A stretch of DNA of 32,000 bases from Flavobacteriaceae bacterium (GCA_965224465.1 OZ245049.1:1170001-1202000); one strand, 5' to 3'; counted from the stretch's first letter, positions 8,541-30,261 are shown. Notes: a model not told the origin generated them from the letters alone. A program made the numbers and translations.

Positions 8541-8889
8541 ATTTAACCGAATACTGTTTTTTTGAGTCATTCAAAATAAAACTGTTTTCACATACTATCC
8601 GGATAGCTGTAAAACTCAGAAGAAGCGGGCTGTTTTGGGCGTTCCCCAAGGGTCGGGCTATCCACTATATCTTTTTTTAAAAGAAAAAAAGGATGCCGCT
8701 GCTATCCCTAACGCAAATCAGGAATTAAATAGGAGGCTTTAGATATTAGTATTGAGATATTAGAAATAAGATAAAACCCAAGACGTAGCACTCAAACATA
8801 TGAATGTTCCAAATTTAAATAGGCTGATTATTTGGAAATCTAAGTCTTTGGAGATGGATGGTTAATCGTTGCGAGCAATAGCAATAAGC
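8541..8889 (-). repeat. Left part of a diverged type II intergenic repeat, interrupted by IS66
   Basis: atttaaccgaatactgttttt..gagtcattcaaaa...gggctgttttgggcg.tccccaagggtcgggctatcc...gctatccctaacgcaaat...tattgagat...catatgaatgt.ccaaatttaaatag parallels 24308-24640 of the type II repeat. It resumes after the IS at 10897. Confidence 0.7.
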
Positions 8890-8968
8890 GTAAGCGTACG
8901 GAGAACTACATCTTGTAAGAAGTTAAAAATAATCTAATTTTTGCATCTAAACAAAAACGAAAATATAA

Positions 8969-9322
8969 ATGTTAGGATTAGGTACAGAACACACGTATTA
9001 TTATCACTTATCTGCAGTTGATATGCGAAAAGGATTTAATGGATTAAGTGGATTAGTTAGTGAGCACATGGAACAAGAGCGAGATAGAAATAGTGTTTAT
9101 GCATTTATCAATAAGCAAAAAAATAAACTAAAACTTCTTCATTGGCGACCTGGAGGATTTGTACTGTATTATAAACGATTGGAACGAGGTATTTTTGAGC
9201 TTCCAAAATACGACATTGAAGATGGATTAGTAGTTTTGAGTTATACCCAAATGGTTATGGTTTTAGACGGAATTAGTATTATAAATACTCAGAAAAACGA
9301 ACGTTATTTAGAGGCTAAATAA
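8969..9322 (+). CDS. tnpB: IS66 family accessory protein TnpB (IS66 Orf2)
   Basis: 117 aa; VDMRKGFNGLSGLV ... LKLLHWRPGGFVLYYKRLERGIFELP is the characteristic IS66 Orf2 signature. Confidence 0.9.
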   Translation: MLGLGTEHTYYYHLSAVDMRKGFNGLSGLVSEHMEQERDRNSVYAFINKQKNKLKLLHWRPGGFVLYYKRLERGIFELPKYDIEDGLVVLSYTQMVMVLDGISIINTQKNERYLEAK

Positions 9323-9365
9323 TTCAATAAAACTGTAGGTTTTACCTGCTATTTAGTCTTGTTTT

Positions 9366-10868
9366 TTGTATATTTATAGTGTGGAAAACAATACAATAGA
9401 CATACAAAAAGAGCTGGTAATTTTAAAGATTGAACTTGAAAAAACAGCTCAAGAACTAGCTGAAATTAAGCAGCAATACGAGCAGCTTAAAAGAATGGTT
9501 TTCGGGTCTAAAAGCGAACGTTTTATCCCTGTTGACACAAATCAATTGTCGCTTTTCGGAAAAATAATAGCTGAGAAAGAAGAGGCATACAAAAAACATA
9601 TTGTAATCTACGAAAGAAAACAAAAGAAGAAAGGAAAGAAAAAACCTGTTCGCTCTTCTATACCTGCGCATTTTCCGCGAGTAGAAGAGATTATAGAGCC
9701 TAAGCACATAGAAGAAGGAGCTGTAAAAATAGGAGAAGAAGTTACAGAACTTTTAGAAATAACGCCTCTTTCCGTTTTTGTAAGACGAATTGTAAGACCT
9801 AAATATGCACTTCCGGAAGAAAAAGGCGTTGTTATAGCAGAATTACCAAGCTTACCGATACCTAAAGGAAATGCATCAGCAAGTTTATTGGCCTTTATAC
9901 TTATTTCAAAATTTGTAGACCATTTACCACTTTACAGATTAATTCAAATTTTTAAACGACAAGATTTAAAAGTAAGTAAATCAACAATTGGAGGATGGGT
10001 ATCTAAAAGTTCGGAGCTTATCGCTCCTTTATACGATACATTTAAGGCTCAGTTTTTAGAAAATGCCAATTATATTCAAGCAGACGAATCTCCTATAAAG
10101 GTTTTAGATAAAGACAAGAAAAAATCAACACACAGAGGGTATATGTGGGTGTATCGAAATCCTGTTAAAAATTTAGTTCTTTTTGAATACAATAAAGGGA
10201 GAGGAAAAGTTGTTCCAGAAGAGTTTTTTAAAGATTTCAATGGGACACTACAGTCCGATGGGTATGCTGCATACCAAAACTTAACAACAAAAGGAGAAAT
10301 TACTCTTTTAGGTTGCATGGCTCATGCTAGGCGGTATTTTGAGAAGGCGCTGGATAATGATCCTAAAAGAGCGGATGTTGTTTTGTTGGAAATTCAAAAG
10401 CTATACAAGATAGAACGTAAAATAAAAGAACAAGAATTAACTATTGAGCAAACTAAAGCATATAGAGAAAAACATGCATCACCTGTTTTAGACGGAATAG
10501 AAATTTATCTTACAAAAGAGCGAAAAAACGTACTGCCTAAAAGTGCCATAGGAAAAGCAATTGCTTATACTCTTAAAATATGGCAAAACCTAAAACTATA
10601 CATCGATGATGGCAGGTTTGAAATAGACAACAATAATATAGAAAATGCCATAAGACCTTTAGCTATTGGCAGAAAAAATTATCTCTTTGCTGGCAGTCAT
10701 GAGTCCGCACAAAACATAGCTCTATTTTATAGCTTTTTTGCTACTTGCAAAAAGAATAACGTAAACCCACATACGTGGCTATGTGATGTCCTTAATAGAT
10801 TACCAGAACATAAGGCTAATAAACTTTCGGAGTTACTGCCTCAAAATTGGAAGCCTGTTGATAAATAA
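9366..10868 (+). CDS. IS66 family DDE transposase (TnpC)
   Basis: 500 aa; coiled-coil N-terminus, then ADESPIKV, MWVY, LQSDGYAAY, CMAHARRYF and IENAIRPLAIGRKNYLFAGS motifs typical of IS66 transposases. The track start is a TTG at 9366; a GTG at 9381 is an alternative. Confidence 0.9.
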   Translation: MYIYSVENNTIDIQKELVILKIELEKTAQELAEIKQQYEQLKRMVFGSKSERFIPVDTNQLSLFGKIIAEKEEAYKKHIVIYERKQKKKGKKKPVRSSIPAHFPRVEEIIEPKHIEEGAVKIGEEVTELLEITPLSVFVRRIVRPKYALPEEKGVVIAELPSLPIPKGNASASLLAFILISKFVDHLPLYRLIQIFKRQDLKVSKSTIGGWVSKSSELIAPLYDTFKAQFLENANYIQADESPIKVLDKDKKKSTHRGYMWVYRNPVKNLVLFEYNKGRGKVVPEEFFKDFNGTLQSDGYAAYQNLTTKGEITLLGCMAHARRYFEKALDNDPKRADVVLLEIQKLYKIERKIKEQELTIEQTKAYREKHASPVLDGIEIYLTKERKNVLPKSAIGKAIAYTLKIWQNLKLYIDDGRFEIDNNNIENAIRPLAIGRKNYLFAGSHESAQNIALFYSFFATCKKNNVNPHTWLCDVLNRLPEHKANKLSELLPQNWKPVDK

Positions 10869-10896
10869 TCAAGGGTGTACTTTACCGTACGCTTAC

Positions 10897-11107
10897 CAAT
10901 AAGCACAAAAAAAACAGTAAAAACATATCCCCACAAAAGAGCGTGAGAGCAAATGAACTAAAATTAGGTGATATCTATTAAGTGCTTTGTCGATAGCCTC
11001 TTCATTAAATCACGCAATCCCCATAGTCGTTTTTTTTGAGCTGGTATTGTTGATAGGATGTTTATGTTGGGCGCTACGTAACGTAGGAATACTTAGTTAT
11101 TGGTGGT
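10897..11107 (-). repeat. Module A (cassette-3' repeat), diverged copy
   Basis: acagtaaaaacatatccccacaaaagagcgtgagagcaaat...tctattaag..ctttgtcgatagcctctt...cacgcaatccccatag...gttgggcgctacg...cttagttatt is homologous to 14870-15060, 20210-20398, 21870-22062, 24640-24835 and 26820-27015. It ends 6 nt before the stop of the 11113 gene. GTTGGGC lies at 11066-11072. Confidence 0.8.
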
Positions 11108-11112
11108 AGTTT

Positions 11113-11694
11113 TTATATCACGTAATCTAAATTATATTCATCAGGATATATAATCGTTAAATCACGACGGTTAAGCCCGTTCTTTTCAAAAATACAAATT
11201 TGAATAGCTGGTTTATAATCTAGAAATTGAGGTCTTAATAATTCAAATATTAATCTGAATCGATATTTTTGGTACTCTTCTTTATATTCTGAAATAGATT
11301 TTATACCGTATACTCTAATTGCCTCGTAATCAAATCCTATTTTTGTTTTAATAAACTCTAATATCCTAGCTACTGTTGTTTCGGGTGTAATTGTAATTAT
11401 ATTTTGGCCTTTTAAGAATGCAATACTATTACTGAAATCATTCATATGGTCTGTATCTCCAACTAAATCAAAACAGTTACTTGTGTCAAAGTCGCAAATA
11501 GTTTGGCATATAATATACTTTTTTTTATGTCTAACTTCTCCCCACCAATGTGCATTTTCAACAAATGTATCCCAAAAATAAAAACCTTCACCAAGCCAGG
11601 TGTTACCCCAATTACAAGGGAAAGGTGCATTCTTTAAAACATATTCAGGATTACCTTTGTCTTTAAGAGTTTGATATAAGATTTTTGATTTCAA
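11113..11694 (-). CDS. Hypothetical protein, last gene of the three-gene SecB-like cassette (candidate toxin/effector)
   Basis: 193-aa ORF with a TTG start, 6 nt after the stop of the SecB-like gene. It contains the GEGFYFWDT...AHWWGE motif. No domain recognised with confidence. Confidence 0.55.
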   Translation of the reverse strand: MKSKILYQTLKDKGNPEYVLKNAPFPCNWGNTWLGEGFYFWDTFVENAHWWGEVRHKKKYIICQTICDFDTSNCFDLVGDTDHMNDFSNSIAFLKGQNIITITPETTVARILEFIKTKIGFDYEAIRVYGIKSISEYKEEYQKYRFRLIFELLRPQFLDYKPAIQICIFEKNGLNRRDLTIIYPDEYNLDYVI

Positions 11695-11700
11695 ATCTTC

Positions 11701-12108
11701 TTAATTTTGAGTAGTGTTTTCCTTTAAAGGAATTTCTAAAGAAGATAAATTAAGTGTAGGTAATACAATTGGTGGAATGTTTGCTTGTAATGTAACAGTG
11801 CCAATAAATGCTCTTATGTAAGGGAAAATTATTGCAATACTATTTCTGTAAAAGTAAGTTGGGATATCAGAAAAACTAGTGTTTTCTTCGAATTTGAAAG
11901 TTGAATGACATTCTATTTCAACAAAATTTTCTTCTGATTTACCACTTTTAGAAGAGAATATAATAATTAACTTAAATTCAGATTTTTTGTGATTAAATAT
12001 TCCTTTTGGATTAAATGAGATATCTATATCGTTTGATGTTTTTTTTGAAAAATCTATATTAATCTTTTCAAATATATAATTGTCTAAATAGAATGCGGCT
12101 TTATTCAC
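11701..12108 (-). CDS. SecB-like chaperone family protein
   Basis: 135 aa. By eye it aligns along E. coli SecB. F.L.NYIFEKINIDFS matches FQIQRIYTKDISFE. FVEIECHSTFKF matches FLCEVQQGGIFSI. AIIFPYIRAFIGTVTLQANIPPIVLPTLNL matches [30 protein letters not shown]. Confidence 0.6.
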   Translation of the reverse strand: MNKAAFYLDNYIFEKINIDFSKKTSNDIDISFNPKGIFNHKKSEFKLIIIFSSKSGKSEENFVEIECHSTFKFEENTSFSDIPTYFYRNSIAIIFPYIRAFIGTVTLQANIPPIVLPTLNLSSLEIPLKENTTQN

Positions 12109-12124
12109 TTTGATGTTTTATTTG

Positions 12125-12367
12125 TTATGCTAATTTAAATAAAAAATCCGAAGCGAACTTCGGATTTGTGATAATATTATTAAGAGAATTGAATTCCCAG
12201 AATTCATTGTTATTTTCTATCTTATGATGATAAATAGTTTGTTCTATAAATTCATCAATTTTCGAACCTATACTATTGTATTTTTCAGATTCAGCCCAAT
12301 CGCTTATAATTTGTTCTTTCGAATTACTCTGAAAATACAATTTCAAATTTTCTAAAATTGTATTCAT
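12125..12367 (-). CDS. Small hypothetical protein, first gene of the SecB-like cassette (candidate antitoxin)
   Basis: 80-aa ORF ending 16 nt upstream of the SecB-like gene. A TACTTTTG (TAnnTTTG) -7-like box lies on the minus strand at 12404-12411, about 36 nt upstream of its ATG. Confidence 0.5.
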   Translation of the reverse strand: MNTILENLKLYFQSNSKEQIISDWAESEKYNSIGSKIDEFIEQTIYHHKIENNNEFWEFNSLNNIITNPKFASDFLFKLA

Positions 12368-12514
12368 AATTTTTAGTTTTTATATTTTATTACAAATATT
12401 GTGCAAAAGTATCTTAAATTTATTTATAATAAAAATATTATTGATATATAATTCTTTTATTAAAGATAGTGATAATTTAAAGAATATCAAAAGATGTTGC
12501 TGTTTTTTTTAATT

Positions 12515-12985
12515 ACCACCAACACCTCTATATCCACAATAACGAGCAAAACTTGACGTTATTTCCGTAATAGCTACAATAGCGGTTGTAATTATATTTA
12601 TTTTTAAATCCGCTATATACGGGTTCTCCAAGGCATTAATTTCCAGCGGAAAAACACTAAAATTATGGATTAATGATTAATGTTTTCGGTTTGTGAACGG
12701 GCGAAATACGGCATTAAATAAACTGAAAAAACACTCTTTCAAAAAAGAGAGAAATAACATGAAAACATTCTGAAATATGGCGAGTAAAGGACTTAAAACA
12801 AGTGTTTCATATAAAAAAAAAGGATGTAATTACTCCCCAAATGAGTGTTCCTAAAACATTGAAATTACACAGGAGGGTGTTTTAGGAGCTGTTGGTTGTA
12901 ATTCCCCAGCGTTCAGTGCAACAAGACGATAAAATCAGTGGGCCCCCCCGGACCCACGTAATTTTAATCGCTAGGTGTTTTGTGC
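12515..12985 (-). repeat. Degenerate type I intergenic repeat
   Basis: 12515-12640 matches the P end of type I (accaccaacacctctatatccacaataac.agc.aaacttgacgttatttccgtaatagctacaatagcgg...aaatccgctatatacgg). 12760-12900 resembles the type I centre (aacatgaaaa...gacttaaaacaag...acacaaggag..gtttta). The module A end is replaced by other sequence. Confidence 0.6.
12938..12957 (-). terminator. GC-rich hairpin downstream of the PIN-like gene
   Basis: The minus strand reads GTGGGTCC-GGG-GGGCCCAC, an 8-bp stem including one G-T pair, followed by TGATTTTAT. It lies 29 nt past the stop at 12986. It is a striking GC-rich island in AT-rich DNA. Confidence 0.45.
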
Positions 12986-14168
12986 TTAGTTTTTATCATT
13001 TTCATCATCAATATTAAACTTTCCGAAATATTTAAAATATTTATTATTATAAAGTTCTCTATCAATTTTTAAACTCTGAAGTCTTTCCTCTAGACTTTTT
13101 AAATCTATTGATAGATGTATATATTCTTCTTGATTGTTATCTTTATCAAAAGGTTCTTCTTTAATAATATTTTGACGATGTATTAATCTATTAATCTGTT
13201 CTTTAACTAACTGAATTTTATGCTCTAAATATTGTGCTTTATCTCTTGATTTATATCTCTCTTTCTTCTTGAAGAATCTAAGTAATTCTTCCTTTTTTAA
13301 TTCTTCTAATTCCTGAATTTCTGCTCTTTTTATTTCTTTTATTTCTTCAAGAGCTTTTTTATTGCCTTGTTCTTTTAAATGTTCTAGACCATATGATAAA
13401 AATCTTTCAGATGAATACATATGAAAATTAACATTTGCTTCTAATTTTATTTCCTCAATAAGCTCTTGTCTTGGTCCCATATTTCGACCATCTTTGATTT
13501 TCCACCACCAATCAATTTTTCTTTCATCTGTGATTAGAATAATTGGTTTTTTGTCTTTTTTTGCTTTGTCAATAATTTGTTTCCATAATACTAAATCTCC
13601 AAATTTTCTATTACCTTGTTTTGTTTTTTCATCTTCAAAGCCAGGTGGAATCTTTTTTTCAAATCTAGTTTTTCCTTCTAAATATATTTCCTGTAATTGC
13701 TCTTCAGTATATTCTTCTGAAATTTTATTCTTGAAAATTAAAGTTAAATCTTCGAAAATTGAATCTTTTTGTAAAAAATCGCAATATTTTTTGATACTAC
13801 TTTCAACTTCATTATTGACATCTTTAAAAACTTTTTTTAAGGAACTATGTAATTTGTCAGATAAAAAAGGAGGTTTGCTTGTTGATTGTAAGTCGCTTTC
13901 AATTTGACCAATTTTAGATATAAATTCTTTATATGCTTTTTCTTGGTCAGCAATTACTTCGTAGCGATTTCTATTATATTCTAAAGCAGATTGATGTGGT
14001 AACCAAATCTGTTTATTAAATTTTGTTATAAGTTCTAATAACGCTTTTCTTGTGTCATTTGAATATCTATAAAGATTTAAAAGGACATTTGCATCAAAAC
14101 AAATAATTCCATTATTCCAAAGATCTTTAATTACTTTTCTTATAAAATCCAGAAAAAATTTCTTTCAT
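12986..14168 (-). pseudogene. PIN-like (DUF4935-type) domain protein with coiled-coil C-terminus, disrupted by a 1-nt frameshift near the start
   Basis: The ORF track reports only the last 164 aa (12986..13480). The same frame is open up to 14164 with no ATG, GTG or TTG. It reads ..IRKVIKDLWNNGIICFDANVLLNLYRYSNDTRKALLELITKFNKQIWLPHQSALEYNRNRYEVI...PIILITDERKIDWWWKI.., which resembles the PIN-like DUF4935 family. The ATG at 14168-14166 gives MKEIFSGFYKKSN*, one frame off. Removing one base from the T4 run at 14135-14138 (A4 on the coding strand) yields MKEIFSGFYKKVIKDLW..., a continuous 393-aa protein. Confidence 0.75.
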
Positions 14169-14191
14169 AAAGTTTTAGTTTTTCAAATTAA

Positions 14192-15060
14192 GCACAACAC
14201 CTCTATATCCACAATAACCAGCCAAAACTTGACGTTATTTCCGTAATAGCTACAATAGCGGTGTAATACTATTTATTTTTAAATCCGCTATATACGGTAT
14301 ACAGCGCCCTTCAAATATACAAAAAACATCCTTTTTGCACACTAACCTTTTAATTGTTTTTTAGAAACGTTTTCAACTTTAACCGCTGTTTTTTTAGAAT
14401 CTCAACAAGAATACTTGTTCTTATCCTAAACGTGCTGTTTTAATATTAGATAGTATCGTTGTTTTTACGGGGAATATTTAGGCGTATTTATTAGTTTTCA
14501 AGTGTTTACTCCTTTGTTTAGATTGTTTTTTGACGTTTTTAGCGGTGTACAGGGAAGGAATTGGAAAGATTTTGTGAATTTCTTTGAAGTTTGCGAACTG
14601 GAATAGCACCTCCCTAAATAAAGGGAAGAGACATTTTTTTGTACTAAGAAAAAGCAATAGCAAACCACCTTAAAACATGAAAAACAAAAGACTTAAAACA
14701 AGCATATAAATTAAAAAAAAGAGGTAGTCAAACCAAAAAGGACTGTCTTCAAATTATTGAAAATACACAAGGAGCTGTTTTAACTAATAAGCAAACAAAA
14801 AAAACCGTAGTCACGTAATGGGAAACACATGCCAAAATACTGCTAACCAATACTTATCCATATCTAAAAACAGTAAAAATATATCCCCACAAAAGAGCGT
14901 GAGAACAAATGACCTAAAAATAGGTGATATCTATTAAGGTCTTTGTCGATAGCCTCTTAATAAAATCACGCAATCCCCATAGTATCATCTTTTGAGCCAG
15001 CATCCTCAACAGGATGTTCATGCTGGGCGCTACACACCGCATGAACACTTAGTTATTGTG
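14192..15060 (-). repeat. Type I composite intergenic repeat, copy 1 (P module + centre + module A)
   Basis: About 870 bp, collinear with 19529-20398; roughly nine of ten positions are identical by eye. It has terminal inverted 9-mers CACAATAAC (14210-14218) and GTTATTGTG (15052-15060). Internal hairpins: ATAGCGG/CCGCTAT, AACAAG-AATA-CTTGTT, and CATCCT-CAAC-AGGATG (15001-15016). Confidence 0.9.
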
Positions 15061-15069
15061 CATAGTTTT

Positions 15070-15477
15070 TTATTCATTTAACATTATCTGTCCAATAGCA
15101 CCGACTATAAAAAATGTAATACAACTTATTACAAATAGAATGAATTGGGCGATATACATACCAAATGACAAAGTCTCACTTAATAAATTAATAACTAAAA
15201 TAATTGAGGAAGGAATCAATCCGAAAATTATTATCAATGATATTATTAATGCAACAAGTTGCCATCTAGTTTTTTTATTTGAATTTGAGATTCCAGATGA
15301 AAACTTCACTACTGATTGTCCAAATAATATTAAGGATATAATTGACCATTCAGTATTATAAAAGATTGCACTTAGGTTGTTTTCATAGCTTCTAACAATT
15401 AATAATATTATAATTGGGAGCAATGTAAATAAGAATTCAGAGGTTAAAATATATTTTATTGTTTTATCTAATTTCAT
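15070..15477 (-). CDS. Small integral membrane protein (about 4 TM helices)
   Basis: 135-aa ORF that is almost entirely hydrophobic segments. Its start lies 3 nt after the stop of the upstream 287-aa gene, so they form a tight operon. Confidence 0.6.
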   Translation of the reverse strand: MKLDKTIKYILTSEFLFTLLPIIILLIVRSYENNLSAIFYNTEWSIISLILFGQSVVKFSSGISNSNKKTRWQLVALIISLIIIFGLIPSSIILVINLLSETLSFGMYIAQFILFVISCITFFIVGAIGQIMLNE

Positions 15478-15479
15478 TC

Positions 15480-16343
15480 TTAATTATTATGAATTACGTT
15501 AATAACTTCAATTATTTCTAATTTGTCAGAAATTAAGTACCCGTTTCTATTGTATTTTGAAGTTTGTCTAACACGTACATTAAGTGAATCTCCAGGAACA
15601 ACAGGAACTTGACCTGAATGAAATTTCTCCAACCACTCTTGGTGCAATATTTTAACAGTTACTGATTTAGTTCCGTGTTTAAAATTCCAAGCAGACTCAC
15701 CTAAAAAGTCAGGTTTTTTGATTAGATAAATCATTTCAGATTCATTTACTATTTCCTTTTCGGTTAAAGCTTCTTCAACAGCTTCAATGTCTATTTTGGG
15801 AGTTCCCGAGCTTATTTCTTTAACTTCTTTGTTATTACTCTTTAACTCAAAAGACTCATTACCGTTGAGTTTGTCGGTAGAATCATTAATTGAATTTATT
15901 GATTTCGCAAGTTTCAATAAATCTGGTTCTGCATAATTAAAAGTTTCTGTTAATTCTTTTTCATTTGCAATTTCTGAGATAGTAGTTTTTAAGTTCTCTA
16001 AATCTTCAACACTTGATTTTTTATCAGCTATGAATTTTAACGTTTCAGCCCTAGATTCTTCAATATATTCTTCAATTTTTTCGATTTCAGGAGCATTGTC
16101 AATTTGTCCATCTTGACTAATAACAATTGCACTATAAAGCTTTCCAATAATAGAACCTTTTTCAATGTCATCTAATATGATTTTAGATTTCACTGAAGTA
16201 TTGACACTTTCCGCAATTAAGTAATCTAAGTCATTGATTCCTTCAATCATCTCAGCAAAAGACCTAAATAACCTACTAGGATTTTCAGTATCTCTTTCGA
16301 AATCAAGTTTTATCTCAAATTTACTGTTAAATTCTTTTTTCAT
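15480..16343 (-). CDS. Hypothetical acidic/coiled-coil protein, partner of the 4-TM protein
   Basis: 287-aa ORF with typical coding composition. The central part is E/K-rich and the C-terminal ~80 aa look globular. No domain recognised. Confidence 0.6.
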   Translation of the reverse strand: MKKEFNSKFEIKLDFERDTENPSRLFRSFAEMIEGINDLDYLIAESVNTSVKSKIILDDIEKGSIIGKLYSAIVISQDGQIDNAPEIEKIEEYIEESRAETLKFIADKKSSVEDLENLKTTISEIANEKELTETFNYAEPDLLKLAKSINSINDSTDKLNGNESFELKSNNKEVKEISSGTPKIDIEAVEEALTEKEIVNESEMIYLIKKPDFLGESAWNFKHGTKSVTVKILHQEWLEKFHSGQVPVVPGDSLNVRVRQTSKYNRNGYLISDKLEIIEVINVIHNN

Positions 16344-21239: not shown

Positions 21240-21303
21240 TCTTTAAAAATATGAATTTCAATTGTAATATCGTTGTTTTTCCTCATTTCTCCTAATGCTA
21301 CAC

Positions 21304-22530: not shown

Positions 22531-23520
22531 TAGGGTTACCTATTTAAATCTCACTAATATTTTGTTTTTCTGAAAGGATTTTTTACTTTTAGAAAAAGAA
22601 AGCTATGAAAATATTAAAAGAATTATCTCGTAAAGAATTTCACACTAAGTTTGGAGAAGAGAGTTTATGTTTATCTTTTTTATCATCTGTAAAATGGGAA
22701 GAAGGTTTTTCCTGTTTTAAATGTAAAAACACAAAGTTTTTAAAAGGAAAAAGAGCGTATAATAGACGTTGTACAAAATGCGGATATGATGAGTCTCCAA
22801 CTGCGAACACTCTATTTCATAAAGTTAAATTTGGTATTGTAGAAGCCTTTGAAATGACTTATGATATAGTTACCAGTAAGAAAGGAGCGAATAGTATTTG
22901 GTTAGCAGAAAGGCACGGTGTTAAACAGATGACAGCTTGGTTGTTTAGAAGAAAAGTACAAGAAGCAATGAAAAGTAGTGAGAAATATCCTTTAGAAAAA
23001 GAAGTTCATGTAGACGAGTTTGAAATAGGTACACCAAAAAAAGGAGAGCAAGGACGTAGTAAATCAGCTACTAAAATTAGAGTTGTAATTGCCATTGAAA
23101 ATAGAAATGGTAAACCAGGCAGAGCATACGCAAAGGTGATAGAAGATTATAGTTGCAAATCATTAAAACCAATATTTGAGAAACATATAAAGTTTGATGC
23201 CAATATAGTTACAGATGGCTGGTCAGGATATAAACCTTTAAAAAAGAACTTCCCAAATTTAACACAAATATTATCTAATAATGGTGAGAATTTTAAGATG
23301 CTACATTTTCAGATAAGAAACTTTAAAAATTGGTTAAGAGGCGTTCATTCGTATTGTGAGAAAGAGTATATAAATCAATACATTCAAGAGTATTTCTATC
23401 GATTTAATCGACTCAATTTTAGAGAAAACATCTTAGAAAACCTACTAAAAAGAATGTGTAAAGAAAAACCAATAACCTATAAATCAATCAAATATATTGC
23501 GACTTAAGAGGGTAACCCTA
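22531..23520 (+). mobile_element. IS1595-family insertion sequence
   Basis: Inverted ends TAGGGTTACC (22531-22540) and GGTAACCCTA (23511-23520). It is flanked by a perfect 8-bp duplication TCAAATTT (22523-22530 and 23521-23528). It carries a single transposase ORF. Confidence 0.85.
22605..23507 (+). CDS. IS1595 family transposase (N-terminal zinc ribbon + DDE domain)
   Basis: 300 aa. CFKC...CTKCG zinc-ribbon pairs, then VHVDEFEIG, VTDGWSGY and a C-terminal YIQEYFYRFNR region typical of ISXO2-like/IS1595 transposases. Confidence 0.85.
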   Translation: MKILKELSRKEFHTKFGEESLCLSFLSSVKWEEGFSCFKCKNTKFLKGKRAYNRRCTKCGYDESPTANTLFHKVKFGIVEAFEMTYDIVTSKKGANSIWLAERHGVKQMTAWLFRRKVQEAMKSSEKYPLEKEVHVDEFEIGTPKKGEQGRSKSATKIRVVIAIENRNGKPGRAYAKVIEDYSCKSLKPIFEKHIKFDANIVTDGWSGYKPLKKNFPNLTQILSNNGENFKMLHFQIRNFKNWLRGVHSYCEKEYINQYIQEYFYRFNRLNFRENILENLLKRMCKEKPITYKSIKYIAT

Positions 23521-24080
23521 TCAAATTTTTTAGATATTGAATCTGCTTTAATGTACAAACTGAAATTCTCTAATTGTTTTATTTTATCTTGTTTTTCCTT
23601 ACTTAACTTAGATATGCTGTCTTTTTTTGCATTTAAAAATTCTGAAAAAATAATTAAAGTATCTAACTGCTTATTATTTTTTCCTTCTTTAGTGTTCTTT
23701 CCCATTTTCATCATTTCAGATAGGTCAAACCCTAAACTATACCTTCCACTTCCATTAGTTTCAAATTTTGTTTCTTGAACAATTTCACAACTTGTTAGAA
23801 TGAACAATGAAATGATAAATACTATGTTAATTTTCTTCATTTATTTCGGTTTTACGCTTGTTTTTAGCTTACACACAACGATTTGTATAAGAACAATAAG
23901 GGATTAAAATGTACTCTATTTTCCGTTTATTACTTAGTGAAATTTACAATTTTTCTTTTAAAAACAGATACGAAAAATTGTAAATTTTGCGGACTTTGTA
24001 AAATGTACTAAACTTTGATTTAAGCACCAAACCCCATATTATTTTTACACGTTGTTGAACTAAACCTAAAGGTAGATTTT

Positions 24081-24835
24081 ACACCCGCTGCGCAAAGTCT
24101 CCCGACTTTGAGCCTTGTTTTCCCTAATATATTTTTATCGTAAAAAAAATTAAAATAGCTCAACAAACAGCCGATGTAGTAGCAGTCATAAAATGTATCT
24201 TATGTGCAACGAATAACTAATTAAGAGGTCATTTTACTATGAATGAAAACATGAAATATTACTCTAGGAATATAGGAATCAAAATAATAGGTATCGTTTA
24301 TCTATTTAACCGTTTAAATACTATTGTTTTGAGGTATTCAAAAATTCAACTATTATAACTTTACTAGCCGGCTATTTTGGGTACTCCAAGGGTCGGGATA
24401 TACGCTCATCTCTTCTGTATTTTTAGATTGGAGTCTCTCCGTTACACCAATCTAAAAAAAACTAAAGGGTAACCGCAGCTATCCCTAACGTAAATGAGTA
24501 TTGAGATGTTACATGTAAGAATGAAGAAATAAGAGAGGATGTAAAATACATGAATGTCCTAATTTAAATAGCCATACAAATGTTTATAAAACGCATGCCA
24601 AAAGCGCTGCTGACCAATACTTATCCGTATCTAAAAACAGTAAAAATATATCCCCACAAAAGAGCGTGAGAGCAAATAATTTAAAACAAGTGATATCTAT
24701 TAAGGTCTTTGTCAATAGCCTCTTAATAAACCTCGCAATCCCCATAGTATCATCTTTTGAGCCGGCATCCTCAACAGGATGTTTATGCTGGGCGCTACGC
24801 ACGGCACGAATACATAGTTATTGTACATAATACTT
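24081..24835 (-). repeat. Type II composite intergenic repeat, copy 1 (module E + REP-like element + module A)
   Basis: About 750 bp, nearly identical to 26267-27015. It contains hairpin CAAAGTC-TCCC-GACTTTG (24093-24110). It also has a CCAAGGGTCGGG...GCTATCCCTAACG element with an internal 12-bp-stem hairpin (TTTTTAGATTGG/CCAATCTAAAAA). Module A hairpin lies at 24766-24781. Confidence 0.9.
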
Positions 24836-24842
24836 TCTTTAT

Positions 24843-25163
24843 TCAGAATCCAAATCCGAACGGTTTTTTCCATTTCGTTATGGTTTTTAATTCTGTTGGT
24901 ATTTCCCAAATATCCAATTCCATTTTCCAATCAGTTTTATATCCTTCTGCTTTGGGGTCAAATTTTAGTTTCTCATTCTTAAATCCGTTATCCTTGAATA
25001 TATTCACAATGTGTTGTAATAGATTCCAAACGGGTTTTTCGTATTCTTCTATTGTTTGCGCTGTAAATTGGAAATAAAAGCCAGATTCCGCTCTCCAAAA
25101 TATTAGAGAAGCAGTTCCTTTGTCACATTTCGGACGGTCAATAACCCAATACAATTGGTCCAT
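24843..25163 (-). CDS. Hypothetical 106-aa protein (cassette gene; its 5' end is duplicated at 29786-29861)
   Basis: ORF MDQLYWVIDRPKCDKGTASLIFWRAESGFYFQF... with coding-like composition. Module A starts right after its stop. No domain recognised. Confidence 0.55.
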   Translation of the reverse strand: MDQLYWVIDRPKCDKGTASLIFWRAESGFYFQFTAQTIEEYEKPVWNLLQHIVNIFKDNGFKNEKLKFDPKAEGYKTDWKMELDIWEIPTELKTITKWKKPFGFGF

Positions 25164-25567
25164 CGTCTCAGTTGTAATTATCAGCTAAGAAGTATTGCTC
25201 CGCTGAATTCAGAGTTTTAAATTTCTCAAAATTAGGAATTATTTATTCGACATTCTTTTCGTCCTCATTGAATGCAAATTCGATGAAATTTCTCTTAATA
25301 AGGAATATTTTATGTGGTCGGATTATCATTTTTTTCGCATTATGTACAACGCTTAGCTAAGCGCAGTACAAGTATAAAAGTACAAACTTTCAAGCTTGCA
25401 ATTAGCCAAAGCTTTTTATTTTGTTTTATCTTCTTTTTCTAAGACCAAATCAAAAAATGTACCTCCCGTGAGACTTCGTGTTGGCGGTCTTCGTTAAATG
25501 TACTGAACTTTTGGATAATCACAAAACCCGCATTGATGTTAGGTGTATTGTACTTTCGCACTTTTAT

Positions 25568-25852
25568 TTATTCTACCGTTAATTTTATTGTTAAACCCAA
25601 TGCACTTGCTAAAAGAGCAAAATTTGACATTCGCATATCCTCTCCGTTTTCAATTCGTGAAATGTATGGTCTTTTCTTTCCAACTTTTTTTGCCAGATTT
25701 TCCTGACTCAAGTGTAATTCTTTTCGACGGTTTTTTAGGATTTCTCCGAAGTAATATGAAAATGCTTCTTCTTTAAATTTTTGACGTTCAGAAGATCCTT
25801 CCTTTCCGTAACGTTGTGCGATGAGCTCTTTTGCGTTTATTGATTTTCCCAT
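25568..25852 (-). CDS. XRE-family helix-turn-helix antitoxin (HigA-like)
   Basis: 94 aa. LKNRRKELHLSQENLAKKVGKKRPYISRIENGE is a classic Cro/C1-type HTH. Its start lies 3 nt after the stop of the upstream toxin gene. Confidence 0.8.
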   Translation of the reverse strand: MGKSINAKELIAQRYGKEGSSERQKFKEEAFSYYFGEILKNRRKELHLSQENLAKKVGKKRPYISRIENGEDMRMSNFALLASALGLTIKLTVE

Positions 25853-25854
25853 GA

Positions 25855-26193
25855 TTATTTTTCCTTTAAATACTCAATTAATAATGATTCTGCTTTTTTG
25901 ATAGCCTTTTTATAATCTTTGGTAGATTTTTTTTGGAAACCATATAAGCACACAGCTTTTGTGGATTCGGTAAAATTTAAGTGGTCAATAGCAAAAATTA
26001 TGATTCGATATTCATTTCCCGATTTGATTCGTAATTCATAGAATTGAGTGGACTTTAGTTTTTTCAAGAAGTTTGAGTTAATTATTTTAACGTCTCCAAT
26101 AATTTCTAATAGCTGAAAAAACTTCAAGGTAAATTTCTCATTTTGTTTATCCACAAATTCAAGACATTCCTCGGTGATATTTATATCTCTCAC
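25855..26193 (-). CDS. RelE/HigB superfamily toxin (Gp49-like)
   Basis: 112 aa with a GTG start. FYELRIKSGNEYRIIIFAI...AVCLYGFQKKSTKDYKKAIKKAESL matches the Gp49/HigB pattern (..ElR...g...yRi.f......v.l.gF.KK....). The toxin-first order is typical of higBA. Confidence 0.7.
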   Translation of the reverse strand: MRDINITEECLEFVDKQNEKFTLKFFQLLEIIGDVKIINSNFLKKLKSTQFYELRIKSGNEYRIIIFAIDHLNFTESTKAVCLYGFQKKSTKDYKKAIKKAESLLIEYLKEK

Positions 26194-26200
26194 CCTGCAA

Positions 26201-26220
26201 ATGTAACGAATAAGTTACAT
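26201..26220. promoter_or_regulatory. Palindromic operator-like site upstream of the toxin-antitoxin pair
   Basis: ATGTAAC-gaataa-GTTACAT, a 7-bp perfect inverted repeat 8 nt upstream of the GTG start at 26193. Confidence 0.4.
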
Positions 26221-26266
26221 AATTTAAATAATTATCATTAGAGTTTGTTTTTTTGCATGAAGTACA

Positions 26267-27015
26267 ACATCCGCTGCGCAAAGTCTCCCGACTTTGAGCC
26301 TTGTTTTTCCTAATATATTTTTATCGTAAAAAAAATTAAAATAGCTCAACAAACAGCCGCTGTAGTAGCAGTCTTAAAATGTATCTTATGTGCAACGAAT
26401 AACTAATTAAGAGGTCATTTTACTATGAATGAAAACATGAAATATTACTCTAGGAATATAGGAATCAAAATAATAGGTATCGTTTATCTATTTAACCGTT
26501 TAAATACTATTGTTTTGAGGTATTCAAAAATTCAACTATTATAACTTTACTAGCCGGCTATTTTGGGTACTCCAAGGGTCGGGATATACGCTCATCGCTT
26601 CTGTATTTTTAGATTGGAGTCTCTCCGTTACACCAATCTAAAAAAACTAAAGGGTAACCGAAGCTATCCCTAACGCAAATAAGTATTGAGATGTTACATG
26701 TAAGAATGAAGAAATAAGAGAGGATGTAAAATACATGAATGTCCTAATTTAAATAGCCATACAAATGTTTAGAAAACGCATGCCAAAAGCGCTGCTGACC
26801 AATACTTATCCGTATCTAAAAACAGTAAAAATATATCTCCACAAAAGAGCGTGAGAGCAAATGACCTAAAAACAGGTGGCACCTATTAAGGTCTTTATCA
26901 ATAGCCTCTTAATAAACCTCGCAATCCCCATAGTATCATCTTTTGAGCCGGCATCCTCAACAGGATGTTTATGTTGGGCATACTCAGCACACGAACACTC
27001 TTAGTTATTATACAT
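26267..27015 (-). repeat. Type II composite intergenic repeat, copy 2
   Basis: Collinear and near-identical to 24081-24835. Module A hairpin lies at 26952-26967 and GTTGGGC at 26972-26978. It abuts the stop of the 27020 gene. Confidence 0.9.
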
Positions 27016-27019
27016 AGTT

Positions 27020-27925
27020 TTATTTTGATATAAGTCTTAGTTCTAAACTTAATTTTGTATTAACACTTAGATTATTTTTCATTCCAGATATCAAATTATT
27101 ATTGAAATATAGAATACTACTTACAATACTTTTCTCGATTTCAGAATATTCAATTTTTTTAATACTCTCAGGTTTCTTCTTTACCCCATATCTAACTTTA
27201 GCAAATCTTATTCCCTTAGGATTAGGTTTATTATGTCTAGATTTTATTTTAAAATTGCAAATTTTTCCTGTTTTATTTATAACAAAAGTAATAAAAAAGC
27301 TTACATCATTATCTAATTTAGAGTAATCGATATAGTACATCATAGTTTTATTAAAAGAAGTGTATAAACAGTCAATTAGACAATTATCATCAAATTGAAT
27401 ACCTTCAAATTTCGGAGGTATATCTAATTCCTCAATTAAATAAACTTTCTTATAATTTTTCTCCTTTCTATTCAAAACCTCAGAAACATGAGAATTGTCA
27501 GCAGGGATTTCTTTTAAGATTATTTTGGATCCAGTATAATTTTCTACTTTTTCGATTTGCAGAATAATATTATTAAAAAAAAGGAAAACTTTATCATTTT
27601 TTGTCAAATAAAAATAGGCGTGATTACCAATTGTAATCTCGTTAAAACGATTTACACTAAACTTTTTGTTTTCTAAAAAACTAAGATCATTAGGCTTGTT
27701 ACTTGTAAAGATTTGATTTATTCCGAAATCAAAAATTAAATCAATGAAACTTTGACTCATACCTTCTATTTCATCTTTATCAAGACCCCTTCCTACAAAA
27801 CTGCTGTATGTACAGTCAATAACTTTCCATTTCCCTTCAAGAGTTATATTCCCTTCACCTTTAGCTAAACATGAGGTCGTAAAAACTATATTAAATAGTA
27901 ATAAAAATAGATATTTAAAATTCAT
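27020..27925 (-). CDS. Lipoprotein with a possible TonB-C-like C-terminal domain
   Basis: 301 aa. The signal peptide ends FTTSC (lipobox). The C-terminal segment ELDIPPKFEGI...FFITFVINKTGKICNFKI resembles the TonB C-terminal fold pattern; this resemblance is weak. Confidence 0.6.
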   Translation of the reverse strand: MNFKYLFLLLFNIVFTTSCLAKGEGNITLEGKWKVIDCTYSSFVGRGLDKDEIEGMSQSFIDLIFDFGINQIFTSNKPNDLSFLENKKFSVNRFNEITIGNHAYFYLTKNDKVFLFFNNIILQIEKVENYTGSKIILKEIPADNSHVSEVLNRKEKNYKKVYLIEELDIPPKFEGIQFDDNCLIDCLYTSFNKTMMYYIDYSKLDNDVSFFITFVINKTGKICNFKIKSRHNKPNPKGIRFAKVRYGVKKKPESIKKIEYSEIEKSIVSSILYFNNNLISGMKNNLSVNTKLSLELRLISK

Positions 27926-27951
27926 TATTCTTTGTTCTTTTTTTAATTATT

Positions 27952-28262
27952 GCTAACACCTCTATATCCACATTAACAAGCCAAAACTTAACGTTATTTC
28001 CGTAATAGCTACAATAGCGGTGTAATTATATTTATTTTTAAATCCGCTATATACGGTATACAGCGTCCTTCAAATATACAAAAACATCCTTTTCGCACAC
28101 TAACCTTTTAATTATTTTTTTATAAAAGTTTTCAACTTTAAACGCTGTTTTTTAAAATTTCAACAAGACTACTTGTTCTTATGATAAACATGCTATTTTA
28201 ATATTAGATAGTATCGTTGTTTTTACGGGGAACATTTAAGCATACTTAGTAGTTCTCAAGCG
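27952..28262 (-). repeat. P module (cassette-5' part of the type I repeat), isolated copy
   Basis: gctaacacctctatatccacattaacaagccaaaactt.acgttatttccgtaatagctacaatagcggtg...caaatatacaaaaa...ctcaacaag..tacttgttctta... matches 14192-14500 and 19529-19840. It starts 26 nt upstream of the ATG at 27925. A TATATTTG box lies on the minus strand at 28071-28078. Confidence 0.85.
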
Positions 28263-28269
28263 CTTACAT

Positions 28270-29719
28270 CCGCTGCGCAAAGTCTCCCGACTTTGAGCCT
28301 TGTTTTCCCTAATATATTTTTATCGTAAAAAAATTTAAAATAGCTCAACAAACAGCCGCTGTAGTAGCGTTTCGTTCTATTTTTTAACAACGATAGAACG
28401 TAAAATAAACTATTTATATCGGTCATTTTGGATGGTAATTGTATTAAATTTCGAAAAACACCTAAGGTACTCCCGATAGAATGGTTGCTTTCTCCATCTC
28501 TATGTAATGTAATAATTTGTTTTAAATCCATTGGATCAAGTGTAGACAACAAATCAGTTAAACTTGATCTTTTAAAGTGGCACAAGTTGAACCATAAACA
28601 CTGGCACTAACCGACCATAATCCGTGGCACAAATAGAACCGTGGTAGTCAGATGTTCTGTTTCACAAGATAATTGATGAGTACCATTACTCTTTATCAGG
28701 CAGTTTTTAAATTCGATTATTTCACCATTCTTTTCTGTTAATATTATTTCAGAGTTTAGCGAAATACTTATTTGTATTGCATAGTGTTTATGAGGTAAAT
28801 TACCCGCTGCGCAAAGTCTCCCGACTTTGAGCCTTATTTCCCCTAATATATTTTTATCGTAAAAAAAATTAAAACAGCTCAACAAACAGCCGCTGTAGTA
28901 GCCTTTCATTCTGTTTTTTAACAACGATAGAACGTAAAATAAACTATTTATATCGGTCATTTTGGATGGTAATTGTATTAAATTTCGAAAAACACCTAAG
29001 GTACTCCCGATAGAATGGTTGCTTTCTCCATCTCTATGTAATGTAATAATTTGTTTTAAATCCATTGGATCAAGTGTAGACAACAAATCAGTTAAACTTG
29101 ATCTTTTAAAGTGGCACAAGTTGAACCATAAACACTGGCACTAACCGACCATAATCCGTGGCACAAATAGAACCGTGGTAGTCAGATGTTCTGTTTCACA
29201 AGATAATTGATGAGTACCATTACTCTTTATCAGGCAGTTTTTAAATTCGATTATTTTACCATTCTTTTCTGTTAATATTATTTCAGAGTTTAGCGAAATA
29301 CTTATTTGTATTGCATAGTGTTTATGAGGTAAATTACCCGCTGCGCAAAGTCTCCCGACTTTGAGCCTTATTTCCCCTAATATATTTTTATCGTAAAAAA
29401 AATTAAAATAGCTCAACAAACAGCCGCTGTAGTAGCCTTTCGTTCTATTTTTTAACAACGATAGAACGTAAAATAAACTATTTATATCGGTCATTTTGGA
29501 TGGTAATTGTATTAAATTCCGAAAAACACCTAAGGTACTCCCGATAGAACGGTTGCTTTCTCCATCTCTATGTAATGTAATAATTTGTTTTAAATCCATT
29601 GGATCGAGTGTAGACAACAAATCAGTTAAACTTGATCTTTTAAAGTGGCACAAGTTGAACCATAAACACTGGCACTAACCGACCATAATCCGTGGCACAA
29701 ATAGAACCGTGGTAGTCAG
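28270..29719. repeat. Tandem direct repeat, 534-bp unit, about 2.7 copies
   Basis: ccgctgcg recurs at 28270, 28804 and 29338, an exact 534-bp spacing. The track ORFs 28607..29119 and 29141..29653 are offset by 534 and nearly identical. Each unit holds module E, the family B 3' half, an HTH-like ORF start, GTGGCAC-type iterated motifs ending ...GTGGTAGTCAG, and a ~180-nt gene-fragment-like piece. Confidence 0.9.
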
Positions 29720-29785
29720 TACCATCTTTTGAGCCGGTATAGTCAACACTATATTTATACTGGATGCTACGCATCGCACGAACAC
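29720..29785 (-). repeat. Module A fragment with a variant hairpin, truncated on both sides
   Basis: taccatcttttgagccggTATAGTCAACACTATAtttatactggatgctacgcatcgcacgaacac is collinear with the canonical tatcatcttttgagccggCATCCTCAACAGGATGtttatgttgggtgctac.caccgcacgaacac. Confidence 0.75.
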
Positions 29786-29861
29786 CCGCTCTCCAAAATA
29801 TTAGAGAAGCAGTTCCTTTGTCACATTTCGGACGGTCAATAATCCAATACAATTGGTCCAT
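29786..29861 (-). pseudogene. Truncated duplicate (first 25 codons) of the 106-aa cassette gene
   Basis: MDQLYWIIDRPKCDKGTASLIFWRA matches 24843..25163 and is then fused to module A sequence. The upstream 29862-30255 is homologous to 25164-25560. Confidence 0.8.
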
Positions 29862-30261
29862 CGTCTCAGTTGTAATTATCAGCTAAGAAGTATTGCTCCG
29901 CTGAATTCAGAGTTTTAAATTTTTCAAAATTAGGAATTATTTATTCGACATTCTTTTCGTCCTCATTGAATGCAAATTCGATGAAATTTTTATTAATAAG
30001 GAATGTTTTACGTTGTCGGATTATCATTTTTTTCACATTATGAACAACGCTTAGCTAAACGCAGTACAGATTTAAAAGTACAAACTTTAAAGCTTGCACT
30101 TAGCCAAATATTTTAATTTATCTTTTTTTTCTAAGACCAAATCAAAAAACTCACCTCCCATGACACTTCGTGTTGATGGTATTCGCTAAAAACACGGAAC
30201 TTTTGGCTAAGCACCAAACCCGCATTGTGTCAAGGTTTTGTTACAAGCCGCATATCTTGTT

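Follow-up and report, generated by a model that had tools for sequence, protein, structure and literature searches.

Integrons are the classic bacterial gene-capture system, and the locus described here raises the question of whether a gene array in a member of the Flavobacteriaceae has been assembled on the same plan. The locus lies in a 32,000-nt stretch of a Flavobacteriaceae bacterium genome (GCA_965224465.1, OZ245049.1:1170001-1202000), hereafter the window, on which all module and box coordinates are given. At 8520-30261, between the helicase gene hrpB and a gene for an MSEP-CTERM sorting-domain protein, we found nine gene cassettes, all on the minus strand, with conserved noncoding junction elements between them. 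We regard this as a genuine integron-like or rAID-like (recombinase-associated interbacterial-defense) cassette array of a non-canonical type, and we infer its mechanism from the sequence. Our interpretation, to which we assign a probability of roughly 0.6, is that the cassettes are of a mobile type and are organized on the integron plan around non-canonical recombination sites.

A co-oriented array of cassettes and repeats had been observed in a preliminary description of this DNA, and its existence was confirmed by family support for the open reading frames (ORFs), by self-BLAST and by nhmmer models, the latter two also serving to call the repeat families (A, P, X, Y, C, D, E and T). The statement that all genes other than those of insertion sequences (IS) are on the minus strand was true for every family-supported ORF at 11113-32000. 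The plus-strand exceptions in that region and at the IS66 end of the array are the IS66 genes (8969-9322 and 9366-10868) and an IS1595 transposase gene (22605-23507). The count of about ten gene units required correction to nine cassettes and a decayed head, with the gene for an 820-aa protein forming a separate cassette. The proposal of an integron- or rAID-like capture array with long, non-canonical repeats was supported, and was sharpened by the boundary boxes described below; the part that did not stand was that the long modules mark the cassette edges. These modules make up the inner part of the junction elements, and the edges are short complementary boxes.

The cassettes, which hold one to three genes each, follow a rule in which the 5' edge (R') is GTT-N7-ATT and the 3' edge (R'') is AAC-N7'-AAY, with N7 being cassette-specific and complementary between the two ends. 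Cognate boxes, the complementarity expected of integrons and of clusters of attC sites lacking integron-integrases (CALIN), were found in eight of the nine window cassettes, in ten cassettes of an array in Maribacter antarcticus (L010; L001 to L011 are labels of comparison loci), and in one cassette of a Flavobacteriaceae metagenome-assembled genome (MAG; L001). The ends of a cassette can form a 13-bp helix with one conserved mismatch, A·C on the coding strand and a G·T wobble on the other strand. The Maribacter array (JHZC01000028.1, 1-13227) spans 13 kb, has 15 co-oriented small genes, and was read as 13 co-oriented cassettes that include KAP NTPase, Amj, DUF6090, DUF4274, DUF4440 and helix-turn-helix (HTH) genes. 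Its spacers of ~150-320 nt contain hairpin junction elements with the same boundary signature, starting right past each stop codon with ...TGCCAACAACGTGTATAA... and ending before each start codon with ...CATACACnnnACGTT.... Examples of its box pairs are GTT-GGCATTA-ATTT with AAAC-TAATGCC-AAC, and GTT-ACAGCAC-AT with AC-GTGCTGT-AAC.

Covariation between the two cassette ends was analyzed in an alignment of 19 cassettes from the three genomes (window, L001 and L010). Across the 13-pair helix, 88% of cells were paired, compared to 60% in shuffles and 28-48% in slid registers, and ten of the pairs varied on both sides. The alignment contained 70 compensatory cells versus 20±3.5 in shuffles, none of 500 shuffles reaching 70, and its covariation score was 0.75 versus 0.19 in shuffles (0/500). 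The six central columns (10-15) were 100% Watson-Crick and included all four pair types with zero G-U; the variable columns as a whole had zero G-U among 133 cells. At position 11, A·C was present on the coding strand in 17 of the 19 cassettes. Cognate box pairs outscored non-cognate pairs in both arrays (p=2e-4 in L010, p=0.005 in the window).

Scans for the exact signature identified nine matches in L010, where the shuffle mean was 0.25, and five in the window array, where it was 0.62 (0/300 shuffles in each case), with zero matches on the opposite strand of either. In the control set, which comprised about 94 kb of related loci, one match was found on scanning both strands. Complementary ends beside GTT/AAC triplets are the mark left in integrons by recombination at G|TT in the attC R boxes (PMC4889954, PMC6393395).

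The junction elements span the sequence from ...AAY to GTT..., and are either D-type (183-196 nt) or A-type composites (0.75-1.3 kb). The A-type junctions look like a version of the short element, as in junctions J2 and J6, with an enlarged interior. Module A had been described as lying just 3' of six cassettes with an additional fragment, and this was the case: six long copies (10891-11115, 14824-15073, 20161-20408, 21825-22075, 24590-24838 and 26775-27025; nhmmer E-values of 1e-64 to 1e-84) begin 2-25 nt past a stop codon, and a 68-nt fragment at 29718-29785 brings A to seven copies in the window. Module P is present in five copies (12505-12625, 14180-14507, 19517-19843, 21455-21733 and 27939-28265). 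The orientation relative to the genes was identical for all ten A copies and all P copies in the window and other loci. Long composite matches were detected between 14187-15071 and 19524-20408 (94%), between 24081-24829 and 26267-27016 (96%), and between 25088-25535 and 29786-30227 (91%). We rejected the modules as coding sequences, as the ORFs in A, X, Y, D and T were unconserved between copies, had frames shifted by indels and had no Pfam match. An Rfam scan identified Flavo-1 at 8647-8719 only, with nothing for A, P or the L010 junctions, and a degenerate motif scan (YWCAANARC) gave no information.

Several features of the junctions are predicted expression signals. Module A has a terminator-like hairpin followed by a T-run shortly past the upstream cargo. 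Module P has a conserved, predicted TAnnTTTG Bacteroidetes-type -7 box, which is TATATTTG in the window and L001 and TATTTTTG in L007, a metagenome contig. Immediately ahead of the downstream cargo, P also has a 65-nt leader block whose sequence is kept in three genomes and whose fold is not. The most conserved 40 nt of P (plus strand 12547-12586, 14223-14262, 19560-19599 and 27982-28021) also contain an antisense TTGACG-N16-TACAAT, a near-consensus sigma-70-type motif that is kept in L007 and is present in L001 as CACAAT. Bacteroidetes housekeeping promoters use boxes other than these sigma-70-type ones.

When four L010 junctions (146-148 nt each) were folded as single-stranded DNA, z-scores ranged from -2.0 to -5.1, the ends were paired in three of the four, and the non-coding strand was the more stable by 2-5 kcal/mol in all four. 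The 183-nt J6 of the window folded with paired ends and z-scores of -3.6 for the top strand and -2.65 for the bottom strand. As a group, the short window junctions (183-196 nt) had z-scores of -2.6 to -3.6 with no strand preference, and the ends of J2 were unpaired in the minimum-energy fold. For a 5-bp hairpin in the A core there were two covarying alleles along with "hybrid" copies, while one helix was 97% paired on the plus strand only; these signs are suggestive, but too weak to serve as a basis.

Comparisons with other genomes provided indications of cassette movement. In L001, modules A and P bracket cargo unrelated to that of the window, and a probe from the most conserved part of P identified one metagenome contig, L007; in both loci the order gene, A, P, gene recurs around unrelated cargo. 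The closest homologue of the window DUF4274 copy is the gene in the Maribacter array, and in both genomes this cassette has the box GTACATA and a homologous D junction upstream, with different junction types downstream. The homology between the two stops exactly at R'', which we read as the result of recombination at the boxes. Copies of the window D module also precede five L010 genes. The dinD gene of an Algibacter MAG (L008) was 87% identical in nucleotide sequence to the window gene over the ORF ±11 nt only, and no modules were present. We interpret the DUF4274 and dinD breakpoints, and the unrelated cargo in L001 and L007, as pointing to cassette mobility.

Two other observations concern these genes. 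In L008 and a second Algibacter MAG (L009), dinD was located alone at 5800-7100, between a thiamine operon and small ORFs, flanked by a weak inverted repeat (TTGTAACGATTA / TAATACGATACAA), and may be a solitary cassette at a secondary site. A 5.18-Mb genome (L011, ERZ25072999) had two identical DUF4274 genes at 8958-13408, with noncoding gaps of 0.9-1.4 kb, beside an IS1595 transposase gene; neither the boundary signature nor window modules were found at this pair.

As a mechanism, we propose that a site-specific recombinase, probably of the tyrosine type and with its gene outside the window, would excise and insert the cassettes. Like IntI acting on attC, this enzyme would cut a folded single strand at its GTT/AAC triplets. 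The junction element would be an attC-like site whose variable loop has become much larger and acquired expression signals, and each cassette would be insulated and self-expressed with no reliance on a single Pc promoter. The array would be anchored at the MSEP-CTERM 3' end, stockpiling defense, toxin-antitoxin and orphan genes. In addition to the site-specific step, RecA would mediate duplication, deletion and shuffling between the long junction homologies. Candidate products of this process are the 94-98% identical composites, the triplication of a 534-nt unit, cassette 1 with its non-cognate boxes, and a truncated copy of D+DUF4274 on an A core, and judging by these repeats, homologous recombination between long junctions clearly also reshapes the array. 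The resemblance of the cassette 1 R'' to the DUF4274 box would be expected if its junction had been copied by homologous recombination.

More tentatively, and at somewhat under even odds, we speculate that the array represents a new class of integron-type cassette system in Flavobacteriia, with a 13-14-bp box, a terminator-plus-promoter loop and a distant recombinase. Within that same tentative proposal, the recombinase could be either novel or a "loner" IntI-like gene (In0) of the kind reported in Bacteroidetes. If true, the existence of such a class would explain the near-absence of cassette arrays in attC-model surveys of the phylum.

A number of observations weigh against an integron-type interpretation. 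As the preliminary description had stated for the window, no recombinase gene was found; no recombinase domain was detected in any window ORF tested (32 kb), and none was found on the 13-kb L010 stretch. The position of the integron or rAID recombinase, on the 5' side of the array, is held by the MSEP-CTERM gene in the window and by a metallophosphoesterase gene in L001. The A-type junctions exceed any attC in length by a factor of 5-10, and the A core had no unusually good fold on either strand (z-scores of -2.3 to +0.4). RNAalifold energies were weak, being -19 and -18 kcal/mol for the two strands of A and -3.6 kcal/mol for the P leader. The linkage of D with DUF4274 hints that a junction may travel with its downstream gene, which would be opposite to the situation in canonical integrons. 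The boxes match the RYYYAAC/GTTRRRY consensus at the AAC/GTT triplets only, and the window R'' mostly ends in AAT. Both helix arms fall in one predicted transcript, so that a role at the RNA level is possible. Lastly, the covariation test is partly circular as many pairs were picked by searching for complementarity, a circularity that is addressed by the shuffle and control-locus counts.

The window array, like those of integrons, is co-oriented and consists mostly of single-gene cassettes, and the recombination element opens with ...AAC, at the stop codon or adjacent to it, and closes with GTT... ahead of the following gene. Within a cassette, the sequence following the 5' GTT is complementary to that preceding the 3' AAC, and pairing is kept while sequence varies, with a conserved mismatch and, in the folded L010 junctions, a non-coding-strand bias. 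Toxin-antitoxin, phage-defense and orphan genes, IS insertions and decayed cassettes are also common to both, and PD-T4-9/CmdTAC, PDC-S13, HigBA and PIN_8 are typical cargo of integron cassettes (PMC9519451, PMC11618068, 10.1101/2024.07.02.601686). Unlike a complete integron, the window shows none of intI, attI and Pc. Its paired box, GTT-N7-ATT, spans 13-14 bp rather than 7 bp, and the elements are modular and extend from 183 nt to 1.3 kb, whereas attC sites are 57-141 nt. Integron cassettes are mostly promoterless and Pc-driven, whereas the junctions here hold a predicted promoter and a terminator-like hairpin. Other differences are the AAT ending of R'' in most window copies, with a junction linkage that may be to the downstream gene, and the host phylum, which is essentially without cassette arrays in IntegronFinder surveys (PMC9024848).

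One alternative is that the boxes act in RNA, with those in the 5' and 3' untranslated regions pairing into a stem around the ORF for mRNA processing, stability or translation, on the model of the RNase III rRNA-processing stems, while the cassettes are moved by ordinary homologous or illegitimate recombination. R' is downstream of the P -7 box and R'' is upstream of the A terminator-like hairpin or the L010 GC hairpin, placing both arms in one transcript, and the covariation proves pairing of the arms, not which molecule they pair in; the window also lacks a recombinase. We nonetheless consider this explanation unlikely. A helix selected in RNA does not account for the zero G-U among 133 variable-column cells, nor for the conserved mismatch being A·C on the mRNA strand and G·T on the other, and these two features, together with the location of the arms at junction/cargo breakpoints and at the inter-genus homology breakpoint, favor a helix at the DNA level. 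The L010 junctions also fold better on the non-coding strand, and the gain of the same junctions by unrelated genes would be left unexplained by an RNA role. A second alternative dispenses with a dedicated system, the locus being a variable defense island in which shared promoter/terminator modules serve as expression signals and RecA acts on homology after DNA uptake. The window array shares with defense islands a cluster of defense and toxin-antitoxin genes between two core genes (PD-T4-9/CmdTAC and PDC-S13, plus a HigBA-type pair and PIN_8), low GC, IS elements and content that varies among relatives, and the locus is non-syntenic in hrpB relatives. The modules, at 250-890 nt and 83-98% identity, are long enough for homologous recombination, and the mosaic junctions, the tandem triplication, the duplicated D+DUF4274, the non-cognate cassette 1 and the lack of a recombinase in 32 kb would all fit. 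Ordinary islands, however, have no repeated junctions, strict co-orientation or cassette-specific paired boxes. Homologous recombination cannot set unrelated ORFs between modules and leave edges precise to within a few nucleotides, and it does not account for the cassette-specific complementary N7 boxes, with their fixed geometry in two genera, and the breaks in homology exactly at the boxes; we judge this alternative to be improbable.

The modules could also be generic, genome-wide repeats of the miniature inverted-repeat transposable element (MITE) or repetitive extragenic palindrome (REP) type that happen to be dense here, the "cassettes" being ordinary genes between repeat insertions. Correia elements, bacterial interspersed mosaic elements (BIMEs) and Flavo-1 are likewise conserved noncoding intergenic repeats, some with promoter or terminator activity, and a Flavo-1 hairpin and the E repeat are embedded in window junctions. 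The widespread Flavo-1 hairpin (PMC9723704) is part of Y, and copies of family E are present both within the array and beside genes outside it, at 2009-5791. We tried the A-X-P composite as a MITE bounded by terminal inverted repeats and rejected it: a 13-nt inverted repeat is present, but it is not kept in L001 or L007. Such repeats should not be restricted to a single orientation, as are all ten A and all P copies, nor fixed next to stop and start codons, A always lying 2-25 nt past a stop, and the modules were array-confined in all four loci seen. An A-core probe matched one stretch (L001) among 185,579 species-representative genomes and had no match in metagenome, viral, plasmid or phage collections, and A, P and related modules had zero copies in the 94-kb control loci. 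Target-site duplications are lacking, the boundaries covary with the cargo, and the cargo neighbors are not ancestral neighbors, making this the least credible of the explanations and a very remote one. More credible, though still doubtful, is that the array is a Flavobacteriales counterpart of the Bacteroidales rAID-1 clusters, a poly-immunity or defense array whose XerD-like recombinase gene is elsewhere or lost. The definition of rAID-1 requires a 5' XerD-like recombinase gene with at least 44% identity to BF9343_RS08045, followed by at least two co-directional genes with a GC content of 41% or less. Here, there are nine co-directional cassettes at 25-35% GC in a host of the same phylum, and the short genes, defensive cargo and repeated intergenic motifs fit the published definition (10.1101/471110, PMC12247911); the rAID motifs are described as reminiscent of integrons. 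Cargo here and in L001 and L007 is rich in small lipoproteins and membrane proteins, as immunity proteins often are. The defining recombinase gene is, however, absent, the 5' flank being MSEP-CTERM in the window and metallophosphoesterase in L001, the junctions are much longer, and Ross et al. report close rAID-recombinase homologues from Bacteroidales only. rAID cargo consists of orphan type VI secretion system (T6SS) immunity genes, whereas phage-defense, toxin-antitoxin and orphan genes were identified here; no named T6SS or polymorphic-toxin immunity family was found in Pfam, NCBIfam and PADLOC cargo scans, an immunity-specific library not having been searched. With none of intI, attI and Pc seen in the window, nor a 5' XerD-like recombinase gene, we do not assign the array to integrons or rAID-1 proper, and describe it as working like them.

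The cargo reported in the preliminary description (HigB/HTH, a SecB-like trio, a PIN-like protein and DinD) was borne out by Pfam, PADLOC and NCBIfam matches. Cassette 9 (11099-12523; genes at 12125-12367, 11701-12108 and 11113-11694) matched PADLOC PD-T4-9_A (8e-82) and PD-T4-9_C (3e-59), as well as SecB in Pfam, and its boxes are R' GTT-GGTGGTA-ATT (12523-12511) and R'' AAC-TACCACC-AAT (11111-11099). This SecB-like trio corresponds to the PD-T4-9/CmdTAC type of toxin-antitoxin-chaperone defense system (PMC9519451, PMC11618068). Cassette 8 (12980-14198) has a PIN_8-domain gene (Pfam PF18476, 4.6e-62) with a 392-aa open frame at 14164-12986, bounded by R' GTT-GTGCTTA-ATT (14198-14186) and R'' AAC-TAAGCAC-AAA (about 12993-12980). 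The ATG of this gene is at 14166 and the 392-aa frame is shifted by one base in a T6 run a few codons in (14140-14170), for which a sequencing error, pseudogene formation and phase variation by slippage are possible explanations. Cassette 7 (15055-16391) contains a 287-aa LAPAL-family gene (15480-16343; NF053583, 3e-25) and a gene for a 135-aa membrane protein (15070-15477) between R' GTT-GTGCATA-ATT (16391-16379) and R'' AAC-TATGCAC-AAT (15067-15055). The 820-aa orphan gene (16576-19038) makes up cassette 6 (16575-19073), with R' GTT-AGGGCT at 19073-19065 and R'' AGCCCT-AAC at 16583-16575.

The dinD gene (20403-21239; NF008573, 377 bits; PADLOC PDC-S13, 2.6e-115) is in cassette 5 (20392-21306), whose boxes are R' GTT-GTGTAGC-ATT (21306-21294) and R'' AAC-GCTACAC-AAT (20404-20392), the latter overlapping the stop codon. 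In cassette 4 (22057-23879), an IS1595-family insertion splits the unit between a lipoprotein gene (23484-23840) and a gene for a 146-aa protein (22081-22521); since the outer boxes, R' GTT-GTGTGTA-AGCT (23879-23866) and R'' AGCC-AACACAC-AAT (22070-22057), match across the IS1595, the lipoprotein fragment must share a single cassette with the 146-aa gene. Cassette 3 (24820-25350) has a DUF4274 gene with a decayed N-terminus (ORF 24843-25163; Pfam PF14096) and the box shared with the Maribacter DUF4274 cassette (R' GTT-GTACATA-AT, 25350-25339; R'' AT-TATGTAC-AAT, 24831-24820). Cassette 2 (25547-26268) encodes a HigB-like (Gp49) toxin (25855-26193) and an HTH_3 antitoxin (25568-25852), both assigned by Pfam, with R' GTT-GTACTT (26268-26260) and R'' AAGTAC-AAT (25555-25547). 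Cassette 1 (27007-27957), which contains a gene for a 301-aa lipoprotein (27020-27925), is the one with non-cognate boxes, R' GTT-AGCAATA-ATT (27957-27945) and R'' AAC-TATGTAT-AAT (27019-27007), the latter resembling the DUF4274 box. PADLOC also gave a weak PDC-S42 match among the cargo. In protein clustering the window cargo proteins were singletons, with the exception of DinD, which was in an at least 90% cluster with Maribacter and Algibacter proteins.

The junctions, all on the minus strand, were assigned as follows. J9, at the hrpB end, consists of a terminal Y' remnant (8520-8889; nhmmer Y model E-value of 1e-19 at 8505-8824) that contains the Flavo-1 hairpin, and of module A copy 1 (10897-11098; nhmmer A model E-value of 2.6e-64), which is cut by an IS66-family element on the plus strand (8890-10896; tnpB at 8969-9322 and transposase gene at 9366-10868; Pfam TnpB_IS66 and DDE_Tnp_IS66). 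The IS66 copy is intact, is flanked by an 8-bp target duplication (GCTTATTG at 8882-8889 and 10897-10904), and looks like a recent simple insertion. J8 (12524-12979) has a terminator-like hairpin (12957-12938), a diverged X (12683-12884) and a partial P (12505-12625). J7 (14199-15054) is an A2-X-P2 composite with a terminator-like hairpin and T-run in A (14907-14882) and the TATATTTG -7 box and leader block in P. J6 (16392-16574) is short and D-like, with a BLAST match to an L010 junction. J5 (19074-20391) is an A3-X-P3-C composite with an orphan R' at the P3 end (19535-19523), and J4 (21307-22056) is composed of A4, an inverted E, a partial P and C. J3 (23880-24819) is made up of A5, Y with a Flavo-1-like hairpin, and a D-like end. 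J2 (25351-25546) is a 196-nt D-type element homologous to the junction upstream of DUF4274 in M. antarcticus (nhmmer D model on L010, E-value of 7e-56), and J1 (26269-27006) is an A6-Y composite that shares 96% identity with the A5-Y portion of J3.

The decayed array head, J0 (27958-30261), is composed of P5 (27958-28267), 2.7 copies of a 534-nt unit (28270-29719), the A-core fragment (29718-29785) and the truncated D+DUF4274 (29786-30227). The 534-nt unit is noncoding and combines the 3' end of Y with an E element as a mosaic, and its copies are 98% identical; the 170-aa ORFs within it had no family match and are probably spurious. This repeat points to unequal crossing-over in the recent past of the array head.

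The flanks of the array were as proposed in the preliminary description. The hrpB helicase gene (6030-8519, plus strand; Pfam HrpB_C, DEAD and Helicase_C), whose product is 93% identical to a MAG homologue, borders the distal 3' end; DNA homology to its closest relative (L002) stops at 8546, 27 nt past the hrpB stop codon. GC content is 25-35% in the array versus 37-41% in hrpB. At the proximal 5' end is the MSEP-CTERM gene (30262-32000, minus strand; TIGR04286, 533 bits, profile positions 415-913 of 920). We ruled out that this gene is truncated, as its frame remains open to 32000 and the ORF runs past the window end. The array begins directly after its stop codon at 30262, where an R''-like GCTTGTAAC is present, and in L005, an MSEP-CTERM relative, a junction element ending ...ATACAAACCGTT|GTAAAGC follows the MSEP-CTERM homologue. 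An array thus abuts the MSEP stop in both genomes, which suggests that the MSEP-CTERM 3' end is a fixed attachment point.

Synteny comparisons through hrpB relatives (L002-L004) and MSEP relatives (L005 and L006) showed that the locus is not conserved and that the window modules are absent from these loci. In L002-L004, where hrpB is 86-93% identical, there are different, ordinary genes downstream of hrpB. In L002 (GCA_002401385.1, 6586-8644) these include two genes of ~24-aa MORN-like repeats (YYENGQL...GEWK) that appear as a 72-nt periodic DNA repeat. BLAST and pattern searches of phage and plasmid collections produced no match, leaving an origin from these elements unsupported.

Two of the repeat families extend beyond the cassette junctions. 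Flavo-1 (RF01705, 56 bits; 8647-8719, minus strand), a repeat that is widespread in flavobacteria and occurs in both orientations (PMC9723704), is located in the last junction remnant beside hrpB, with weaker copies at 24456-24507 and 26641-26692, and module Y contains a Flavo-1-like hairpin whose loop has an insertion. Its presence inside junctions raises the question of whether Flavo-1 is a DNA-level element related to these arrays. Family E (~165-180 nt, with a CGTTCTA...TAGAACG hairpin) occurs left of hrpB at 2009-2188, 3675-3743, 3860-4005 and 5631-5791, inside the array at 28372-29516 and, inverted, at 21744-21811, and in L001 at about 5300-5340. Left of hrpB it flanks minus-strand genes (SbcD-like, alkaline phosphatase and unassigned ORFs), and this region may be another repeat-structured gene set. 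The exact box signature of the array was not seen at these genes, the lone exact match in 1-8519 (485/389) being judged spurious.

In IntegronFinder surveys, Bacteroidetes were found to have loner integrases only, plus a complete integron in Salinibacter (PMC9024848), and a 2024 survey of integron defense cassettes listed Bacteroidota among the clades previously found without any integrons (10.1101/2024.07.02.601686). Our literature search found no description of such cassette arrays in Flavobacteriia. The rAID clusters of Bacteroidales have been only "reminiscent" of integrons, with a mechanism that is not known, and the covarying GTT/AAC boxes provide a concrete, searchable signature for the phylum, in which the identity of a cassette is written in a 7-nt box pair. 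As the signature scan found arrays in two genera with almost no false matches, a genome-wide survey and a hunt for the recombinase are directly feasible. The recombination elements may have come to include a terminator and a promoter, a solution to expression unlike the single Pc promoter of integrons, and the occurrence of DUF4274 beside different junction types in different genera bears on how cassettes are made and exchanged. For marine Flavobacteriales, the array constitutes a reservoir of compact defense systems, including CmdTAC-like, PDC-S13/DinD, PIN_8 and HigBA.

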